A DNA stretch of 14,774 nucleotides from a virus (IMGVR_UViG_2698536395_000026); one strand, 5' to 3'. Counted from the first letter of the stretch, positions 5,198 to 5,683 are shown. The notes: generated from the sequence alone by a model not told the origin. Translations and numbers: made by a program.

Positions 5198-5683
5198 ATG
5201 AAAAAATCACTGTTAATTATCCCGCTTCTGCTGGTTGGATGCGCAAAAGTAAGTGACTATCAAGCAAGTTGCGAACAACGCTATCAAAAGCTTAGCGATA
5301 TGGCTAATTGCCTTGATGCCAGTGTGAAGAACGACTCACGCATGGCATCAGCACCAACACCTAAGCTGTATGTCCTTGCTGCAAAGATGCTCGGGAAAGG
5401 TGTCGATGAAGGCAAGATAAGTGACGCACAGGCAAGACTTGAGCTTCAGAATCTTTATGTTCAATTACAAAGCCAAGAACAAGCCCAACAAATAGCACAA
5501 AGCCAAGCATTCCAGCAGGCTTTATTGAATTATCAGGCTGTAAACACAATGCAAGCGATCGAGCAAAAAGCGCGCCAGCCTGTTATAACTCAACCTTACC
5601 CAACACGCGTTGACACATATACAAACTGCAATTCAGGATTTGGAAACACGGTAACATGCAACAGTAGCAGTAATATCAGGTAG
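5198..5683 (+). CDS. Predicted outer-membrane lipoprotein of unknown function (candidate superinfection-exclusion moron)
   Basis: 161 aa. Strong RBS AAGGAG 10 nt upstream of the ATG at 5198. Signal peptide MKKSLLIIPLLLVG followed by lipobox Cys (LVGC); the +2 residue is Ala, not Asp, so outer-membrane sorting is predicted. Mature part has 4 further Cys in two pairs and a Gln-rich predicted helical segment. No homolog recognised from memory. Same strand as mnt and opposite to the late operon. Confidence 0.7.
   Translation: MKKSLLIIPLLLVGCAKVSDYQASCEQRYQKLSDMANCLDASVKNDSRMASAPTPKLYVLAAKMLGKGVDEGKISDAQARLELQNLYVQLQSQEQAQQIAQSQAFQQALLNYQAVNTMQAIEQKARQPVITQPYPTRVDTYTNCNSGFGNTVTCNSSSNIR

Follow-up and report, generated by a model that had tools for sequence, protein, structure and literature searches.

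The stretch of viral DNA analysed here (IMGVR_UViG_2698536395_000026, 14,774 nucleotides (nt) in full, hereafter the window) was found to be identical to a P22-like (Lederbergvirus-type) prophage located beside tRNA-Arg/intS in Escherichia coli O26:H11 strain 11368 and many other O26 genomes. The gene under study encodes a predicted lipoprotein and lies on the plus strand at positions 5198..5683 (161 amino acids plus the stop codon; WP_000749290.1, phrog_6067), being defined by its open reading frame (ORF), the RefSeq annotation, its homologues and the ratio of nonsynonymous to synonymous substitution rates (dN/dS). Along the plus strand, the window holds an integrase gene, an acyltransferase-3 gene (minus strand), the tailspike gene (minus strand), a Mnt-type repressor gene (plus strand), the lipoprotein gene (plus strand) and late genes (minus strand) homologous to P22 genes 16, 20, 7, 14, 26, 10, 4 and 5, with the gene 26 homologue identified by RefSeq as a needle with an Sf6-type knob. 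The repressor gene (4861..5127, plus strand, RefSeq start), situated 70 nt upstream of the lipoprotein gene, combines an Arc ribbon-helix-helix domain with a Mnt C-terminal domain (Pfam Arc, 1.1e-14; Repressor_Mnt, 3.9e-12). On the other side, the gene for the gp16-type ejection (DNA transfer) protein (5698..7545, minus strand; phrog_770, 6e-279; 74-76% identity to P22 gp16) converges on the lipoprotein gene with a stop-to-stop gap of 14 nt. The order in P22 is 16, sieA, orf59a, mnt, arc, ant and 9, with 22 nt between sieA and gene 16, and therefore the preliminary description of this sequence was correct in placing the lipoprotein gene in the sieA slot, between mnt and the ejection-protein gene. 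SieA is an inner-membrane superinfection-exclusion protein that blocks DNA delivery; its gene is present in only about a third of P22-like phages, and what replaces it was not discussed (PMC10883804).

The longest ORF call at this position begins at 5162 (173 amino acids). The ATG at 5198 was favoured as the start codon because of a Shine-Dalgarno sequence 10 nt upstream (AAGGAG, 5182-5187), the agreement with the RefSeq call, the MKK start conserved among homologues and the need for an N-terminal signal peptide. The corresponding long form (516 nt; L002 4971-5486) is annotated in the record of Gally, the P22-like prophage of E. coli LF82, while RefSeq and other phage records give the short form. 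The in-frame ATG at 5162 falls within a conserved 28-nt block described below, and the long form, which would bury the signal peptide, is probably a misannotation.

The N-terminus of the product, MKKSLLIIPLLLVGC|AKV, was found to possess the basic n-region, hydrophobic h-region and lipobox ([LVI][ASTVI][GAS]C) of a lipoprotein signal (MKKSLLIIPLLLVG-C15), the lipobox being L-V-G-C with Cys15. As read from the sequence and from the conservation of Cys15, the signal peptide (residues 1-14) and lipobox cysteine (codon 5240-5242) occupy 5198..5242 on the plus strand, followed by Ala at position +2. This signal peptide was the only hydrophobic segment identified in the protein. Both Ala at +2 and Lys at +3 are nearly invariant among homologues, and therefore there is no Asp retention signal. 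Lipoproteins that lack Asp at +2 are sorted by the Lol pathway to the outer membrane, and the same destination is predicted for this protein. Cysteines are located at residues 15, 25, 38, 144 and 154; among 129 diverged relatives Cys25 and Cys38 were invariant and Cys15 and Cys144 were at least 90% conserved, with Cys154 being at least 90% conserved in an alignment of 30 sequences. Glutamine accounts for 20 of the 147 mature residues, and for 16 of the 49 residues from 84 to 132.

Structure prediction with AlphaFold gave a poor model when 35 close sequences were supplied (predicted local distance difference test score, pLDDT, 63.5) and a confident one with 129 diverse sequences (mean pLDDT 90.6), in which helices span residues 18-28, 32-45, 53-70 and 76-125 and a hairpin is formed by residues 140-146 and 152-158. 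An N-terminal four-helix-bundle domain (residues 18-98; 5249..5491, plus strand) would contain the invariant Cys25 and Cys38. Helix 4 is predicted to continue as a Gln-rich stalk or linker (residues 99-125; 5492..5572, plus strand), as judged from alignment, composition and model, with a length that varies in distant relatives. A C-terminal beta-hairpin (residues 140-158; 5615..5671, plus strand; model pLDDT about 86-90) would carry Cys144 and Cys154 within the aligned motif T-x-C-x3-G-x3-4-C-x-S. The modelled protein can be summarized as a lipid-anchored, generic four-helix bundle, the last helix of which is prolonged into a Gln-rich stalk, with a small hairpin bracketed by cysteines at its end. 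The lipoprotein signal peptide with an outer-membrane-type sorting signal, the two Cys pairs (25/38 and 144/154) and the long Gln-rich helical segment that had been noted in the preliminary description were thereby recovered.

Comparison of 15 distinct alleles gave pairwise dN/dS values of 0.03-0.13 for most pairs with the window allele, at dS values of up to 0.58; the encoded protein is subject to strong purifying selection. Together with the old synteny, transcription and homologues reported below, this selection identifies a real gene and not a chance ORF. That the gene belongs to no known family and is missing from most related phages would agree with a hitch-hiking ORF without a selected function, but this explanation is effectively refuted by the dN/dS and dS values, by the conservation of cysteines and architecture across the 129 diverged sequences, by the confident AlphaFold model and by transcription.

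The sole real family match of the lipoprotein was to phrog_6067, a family of unknown function (E=1.2e-110, residues 1-161 of 161), which was also matched by all 30 members of the alignment of relatives. Pfam contains models for both TraT and Bor. Searching Pfam-A at E <= 1 returned only DUF2802 (0.64) for the lipoprotein and neither of these two families, and the 30 relatives scanned likewise gave no match to TraT or Bor nor any other Pfam domain. No family of NCBIfam scored above threshold for the lipoprotein or the 30 relatives, no family of the PADLOC-DB 2.0 anti-phage defence profiles was found at E <= 1 for the lipoprotein or above threshold for the relatives, sequence profiles of the PDB gave no specific match, and no viral structure was matched by Foldseek at E <= 0.001. 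Weak matches to GspK, TraV, LvhB7 and RcsF were rejected, as these were driven by low-complexity sequence or the signal peptide. For SieA (phrog_7745), BLASTP produced no alignment at E <= 100 and there was no profile match; neither its FxRYPxEAxxFNK motif nor its polytopic inner-membrane topology is shared by the lipoprotein. The matches to Cor (phrog_1119; E=0.033, residues 1-31) and to Llp of phage T5 (PDB 8a60_B; E=0.21, residues 2-32) were confined to the signal peptide, and membership of the Cor/Llp family was rejected on this basis. The profile comparison with Cor, Llp, SieA and TraT that had been suggested at the outset therefore yielded no homology over the mature protein, and the initial failure to recognise a named family was upheld by the Pfam, NCBIfam, PADLOC and PDB results.

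Close homologues, which came exclusively from Enterobacterales, formed 94 clusters, none of them with an annotation other than hypothetical protein or lipoprotein. An exhaustive profile search extended this to a wider superfamily of 243 representative clusters at E <= 0.001, the members of which share a lipobox, an N-terminal two-Cys domain, a variable-length linker and, at the C-terminus, a Cys-x(6-8)-Cys motif. By sequence and by predicted structure, the lipoprotein appears to have no recognisable relative of characterised function, and no functional study was found in the literature for it, including under its accession, hkcB, P22-like lipoprotein or Gally.

The lipoprotein gene is preceded by a 28-nt block of the form TCATGGTATCCTG-NNN-AAAACTAAGGAG. 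In the window this sieA-site control block reads TCATGATATCCTGTGAAAAACTAAGGAG (5160..5187, plus strand) and comprises an extended -10-like motif, TG(5163-5164)-n-TATCCT(5166-5171), along with the Shine-Dalgarno sequence noted above. In Salmonella phage VSe13, the block ahead of the lipoprotein gene was found to be identical at 28 of 28 positions to that immediately upstream of P22 sieA, TCATGGTATCCTGCACAAAACTAAGGAG, and the window block matches the P22 block at 24 of 28. A search of all fetched loci allowing up to five mismatches, for which the estimated chance expectation is approximately 0.001 matches, found the block once per locus and always 6 or 10 nt ahead of a start codon. Within it, TG-n-TAT(C/T)CT was constant, with n being G, A or C. 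Variants in which TCAT is changed to ATCT break the -10 hexamer implied by the inferred promoter annotation of the P22 record, yet keep TGnTATCCT, and for this reason we infer that the block holds a promoter of the extended -10 type, after which come a leader of approximately 20 nt and the Shine-Dalgarno sequence; the transcript is predicted to start near 5178.

Scans for two-hexamer promoters and for terminators showed nothing significant between mnt and the lipoprotein gene or after the latter, a hairpin across the two converging stop codons was not significant (z = -1.5), and no RNA family was found in the window with Rfam. The preliminary description had the gene transcribed with mnt. The shared orientation and the lack of a detected terminator between the two genes agree with this, but the conserved promoter-like element of the lipoprotein gene does not; in P22, an annotated terminator separates sieA from mnt and sieA has its own annotated promoter, and in Gally, VSe13 and 720R6 mnt and the lipoprotein gene are separated by a gene on the opposite strand.

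Seven unrelated ORF families were found to follow the block. Besides SieA and the lipoprotein, these are HkcB of HK620 (phrog_5962), a 129-aa signal-peptide protein (phrog_2651), a 109-aa and a 106-aa protein each with an N-terminal hydrophobic segment (phrog_8100 and phrog_10450, respectively) and a 62-aa hydrophobic protein (phrog_21338). SieA is the only one of the seven with a characterised function. A strongly hydrophobic N-terminal segment of the signal or transmembrane type is present in six of the seven families; the N-terminus of HkcB is also hydrophobic but falls below the hydropathy cut-off used. The five uncharacterised cargoes, found at loci L033, L038, L043, L059, L065, L070, L072, L080 and L018 (hkcB), can be regarded as parallel candidates for envelope functions expressed from a prophage.

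Across 19 IMG/VR loci, the cargo ORFs converge on gene 16 and end 5-90 nt from its stop codon. Five of them (the lipoprotein, SieA and the 129-aa, 109-aa and 62-aa proteins) alternate at loci where gp7 is 100% and gp16 96-100% identical to the window, all ending 11-18 nt from the gene 16 stop. In turn, the lipoprotein gene at 97-100% identity adjoins three types of gp16 which share only about 34% identity with each other. On these sequence comparisons, sieA and the lipoprotein gene are cassettes that replace one another at a single expression site, the lipoprotein gene having both features of the SieA site, namely convergence on gene 16 and a promoter-like block upstream. The common block and the swapping of cargo therefore constitute stronger evidence than shared position alone. 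Among 162 phage records with a gp7 homologue, 41 were found to encode type A SieA and five the lipoprotein, and among 80 sampled IMG/VR loci three encode SieA and 16 the lipoprotein, with no co-occurrence in either set. As statistical evidence this mutual exclusivity was set aside, being insignificant given the small numbers and non-independent records; it is due to both genes occupying the same physical site.

A hyper-variable region between genes 16 and 9 of P22-like phages, termed the 'ant moron', has been defined in a comparison that included the prophage of E. coli B7A (PMC2629481), and the tailspike gene of the window (2616..4739, minus strand) forms its other boundary. The lipoprotein gene lies in this region, is variable in occurrence and is expressed apart from the late operon, and B7A carries it. 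In contrast to the present analysis, the parts of that comparison available to us treat the region as a whole, with no gene-16-proximal site, 28-nt block or envelope bias of the cargo singled out. To our knowledge, and as far as the accessible portions of the P22-like phage literature extend, this combination of a block with a cargo site at the gene 16 end, holding at least seven families that are mostly envelope-targeted, has not been described.

The lipoprotein gene was identified in 186 of 5426 complete E. coli genomes, always on the chromosome and in a total of 190 copies, with carriers including O26:H11, O104:H4 strain 2011C-3493, LF82 and the enterotoxigenic E. coli (ETEC) strain B7A (95.5% identity). 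Most P22-like phages are without it, as seen from the five phage records and 16 sampled loci given above. Outside these, homologues with 48-60% protein identity fill the same slot in Proteus phage Brookers, Salmonella phage MS2 LVA, Providencia alcalifaciens and two Tatumella species. A look-up of related loci with the close alignment, covering species-representative genomes, gave five loci. A metagenome-assembled Enterobacteriaceae genome has a homologue between the tailspike gene and gene 16, with no mnt detected.

This synteny with ejection and tailspike genes across genera, and the location of the gene inside the path of the late operon from gene 16 to the tailspike, could point to a role in the lytic cycle, either in keeping progeny virions from ejecting abortively on cell debris or vesicles or in tuning late read-through into the tailspike gene by convergent transcription. 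The first of these, protection of progeny, has been proposed as a second role for T5 Llp. Such a role is nevertheless improbable here, as most P22-like phages are without the gene, which is therefore dispensable for growth, as transcripts of it are present when the late genes are silent (see below), and as the strong purifying selection acts on the coding sequence and not merely on the act of transcription. A spanin or lysis function was set aside since the lysis cassette is elsewhere in these phages, as was inhibition of a lytic transglycosylase, since Pfam finds no SLT domain in the gp16 of the window.

Distant relatives were found mostly on mobile elements, with one adjoining an integrase gene and another in a phage-like contig with a small terminase. 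The distant homologue P0139 (L103 5497-6030), which occurs on at least 24 contigs, is located in the accessory region of an integrase-AlpA-primase island, beside a gene with a T5orf172 domain; it is in locations of this sort that the anti-phage genes of satellites are carried. Another, P0120 (125 aa; L099 212-589, plus strand), convergently abuts with no gap the gene for a 4839-aa polyvalent protein (590-9589, minus strand) with ParB, Eco57I, helicase and MuF_C domains, a type of protein delivered with DNA by phages and conjugative elements, and this pair echoes the convergence of the lipoprotein gene with ejection gene 16. In Pectobacterium peruviense (L101 7438-8411), a 42%-identical relative without the C-terminal Cys hairpin is accompanied by a gene resembling DNA polymerase III theta, the pair lying between dsbB and the ycgN-minCDE region in what looks like a small insertion; a theta-like gene is also found near the tailspike gene of Proteus phage Brookers.

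That relatives are common in accessory regions of mobile elements would also suit a periplasmic binder of the immunity type, the four-helix bundle of which neutralises a colicin or bacteriocin domain, an effector of a type VI secretion system (T6SS) or a muramidase. One member of the superfamily gave a sub-threshold match to the NCBIfam model 'putative T6SS immunity periplasmic lipoprotein'. This match is, however, far below the cut-off and probably driven by the signal peptide, and no cognate toxin gene adjoins the lipoprotein gene in the window, so that we give this explanation a low probability.

Transcription in a lysogen was assessed with the RNA sequencing (RNA-seq) values for Gally (Supplementary Table S1 of PMC9928086), which encodes a protein 97% identical to that of the window (GALLYPH_13, equal to LF82_138). 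In overnight lysogeny broth (LB), GALLYPH_13 reached 70.2 normalised counts against a prophage median of 15.6, the highest of any Gally gene after the c2 repressor (727). Expressed as log2(fpkm+5), with fpkm being fragments per kilobase per million mapped, its values were 6.0-6.3 in LB, 7.9-8.2 in Dulbecco's modified Eagle medium (DMEM) and, in macrophages, 10.3 after 1 h and 8.5-8.7 after 6 h. The ejection-protein genes beside it remained at approximately 2.5-4. Transcription of GALLYPH_13 from the prophage therefore does not depend on lytic growth, the late genes being silent. The expectation that the gene would be expressed in the lysogen thus held for the LF82 allele, and the O26 allele would presumably be expressed in the same manner. 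The gene on the opposite strand between mnt and GALLYPH_13, GALLYPH_14 (L002 4447-4866, minus strand), encodes a second, unrelated lipoprotein (139 aa, MKRIIGVVAGAILLSGC...; phrog_6823, of unknown function, with a weak PEGA-domain match) that is also present in L015 and seven IMG/VR loci. Its RNA-seq signal in LF82 rises from a log2 value of approximately 5-6 in LB to 11.0 in macrophages, above that of GALLYPH_13.

These data bear on a further explanation, in which the lipoprotein is a lysogenic-conversion factor of the Bor/TraT kind that alters the envelope for the benefit of the host (resistance to serum, complement, antimicrobial peptides or stress) and helps the lysogen in animal hosts. 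Relative to LB, the Gally allele is up about 16-fold in macrophages and about 4-fold in DMEM, and its neighbours mnt, GALLYPH_14 and GALLYPH_17 rise along with it; the carriers O26:H11, O104:H4 2011C-3493, LF82 and ETEC B7A are pathogenic, and some distant relatives are chromosomal. Lambda Bor and plasmid TraT likewise belong to mobile elements and are expressed in the carrier cell as lipoproteins of the outer membrane, the location predicted here, where they confer serum resistance or surface exclusion; the lipoprotein differs in its predicted fold and in having no Pfam match at E <= 1 to either. Furthermore, deletion of the whole of Gally left the survival of LF82 in macrophages unchanged (PMC9928086), the family fills the same slot in phages whose hosts (Proteus, Tatumella, Providencia, Pectobacterium and Serratia) have very different lifestyles, and the sole characterised gene of the site, sieA, is anti-phage. 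On balance, a host-fitness role is considered unlikely, albeit less so than the immunity and lytic-cycle roles.

Small lipoproteins of other phages provide a precedent for a function against superinfection. T5 Llp and the Cor proteins of phi80 and N15 are outer-membrane lipoproteins that inactivate the receptor FhuA and so block entry, PDB 8a60 being the structure of Llp with FhuA. The lipoprotein of the window resembles these in being a small phage lipoprotein with a residue other than Asp at +2, a predicted disulfide and a proposed action at the outer membrane. It differs in its modelled fold of a four-helix bundle with a stalk, and in that Llp and Cor belong to siphoviruses using FhuA while the present phage is an O-antigen-binding podovirus. 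The suggestion of a protein of the Cor/Llp type with a different sequence can therefore be retained as regards the distinct sequence but not as regards family membership; that the lipoprotein works in the manner of Cor and Llp is a hypothesis drawn by analogy. With P22 SieA, it shares the site converging on gene 16, the 28-nt block, prophage-type expression, a predicted location in the envelope and a similar size (164 aa for SieA, 161 aa for the lipoprotein). SieA is in contrast a polytopic inner-membrane protein, with hydrophobic windows from residue 5 to about 150, whereas the lipoprotein is predicted to be a lipid-anchored soluble domain and has an outer-membrane sorting signal, and exclusion has been demonstrated for SieA (PMC10883804).

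It is proposed as the best-supported explanation, although tentatively and at somewhat short of an even chance, that the lipoprotein blocks a post-adsorption step in the entry of superinfecting phages from the side of the outer membrane. This proposal draws on analogy and genomic context. The protein would be made in the lysogen, apart from the late operon, and would be exported, lipidated at Cys15 and sorted by the Lol pathway into the outer membrane's inner leaflet. Facing the periplasm would then be a four-helix bundle braced by a disulfide, a stalk of Gln-rich helix and a small disulfide-bonded C-terminal hairpin. From there it may interfere with how the trans-envelope DNA conduit of gp7, gp20 and gp16 assembles or functions, or with the use of an outer-membrane secondary receptor by the superinfecting phage, acting from the outer membrane as SieA does from the inner membrane. 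Consistent with this are the site and block shared with sieA, cargoes that are mostly of envelope type and the fact that SieA, alone characterised among them, blocks DNA delivery. The independence of the gene from gp16 type, its old synteny, transcription in the lysogen, purifying selection, relatives on mobile elements and the precedent of Llp and Cor also support an entry block.

A broader form of this proposal, which we regard as speculative and rather improbable, would see the gene-16-proximal site as a dedicated plug-in platform, with one block of promoter and ribosome-binding site serving interchangeable envelope proteins and each of the at least seven cargo families imposing a different stop on phage genome delivery. 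The lipoprotein would then represent a new family of inhibitors, anchored in the outer membrane, that trap or divert the ejected podovirus gp7/gp20/gp16 conduit in the periplasm, with relatives on other prophages, satellites and chromosomes acting likewise against other injected proteins.

Several observations weigh against an entry-blocking function. No relation in sequence or fold to known exclusion proteins was found with Pfam, phrog, NCBIfam, PADLOC, PDB, Foldseek or BLASTP, and the literature yielded no data on an exclusion phenotype for any member of the family. Position and a common promoter show co-regulation and not shared function, and the cargoes other than SieA are uncharacterised. 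No sign of diversifying selection was seen in the dN/dS comparison of alleles, and the chromosomal surroundings of some distant relatives appear ordinary. Two copies of the lipoprotein gene are present in four E. coli genomes; should these prove to be two intact P22-like prophages, they would bear on the exclusion of the phage's own kind. The Gally allele, which supplied the expression data, is without an intact 28-nt block, the sequence being degenerate there. Its strong induction in DMEM and macrophages suits a role in host interaction equally well. Moreover, Gally was reported to be without morons, the cut-off being 5-fold over background (PMC9928086); this is because GALLYPH_13, at 4.5-fold, fell just below that cut-off and was not classed as a moron.

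Two further features of the prophage were noted. The acyltransferase-3 family gene between the integrase and tailspike genes (1403-2545, minus strand; Pfam Acyl_transf_3, 9e-29) is in a position that holds gtrABC in P22 and the O-antigen acetylase gene in Sf6. Its product probably modifies O-antigen, which would give the same prophage a separate adsorption-blocking function. An imperfect palindrome, ATGCAACCA-TGATG-TGATTGCAT (4765-4787), is found in the 121 nt that separate the start of the tailspike gene (4739) from that of mnt (4861), and is a candidate Mnt operator. The prophage has mnt without arc or ant, and the target of Mnt might be read-through into the tailspike gene.

The lipoprotein is accordingly presented as a candidate exclusion lipoprotein of a new sequence family and predicted fold in a podovirus, its function being proposed by analogy. 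If the entry block is true, no exclusion factor acting from the outer-membrane side would have been described before it for P22-like podoviruses, and it would add a new protein family and fold to those serving exclusion, and would offer a handle on the poorly understood trans-envelope DNA conduit of the ejection proteins. The 28-nt block provides a simple sequence rule for finding more candidate exclusion genes, with at least five other uncharacterised cargo families behind it. Should the gene instead prove to be a host-fitness factor, its induction in macrophages would still make it relevant for lysogenic conversion. Carriage by 186 of 5426 E. coli genomes, including the O26:H11 and O104:H4 outbreak lineages, means that the gene could affect phage typing, phage therapy and the acquisition of prophages.

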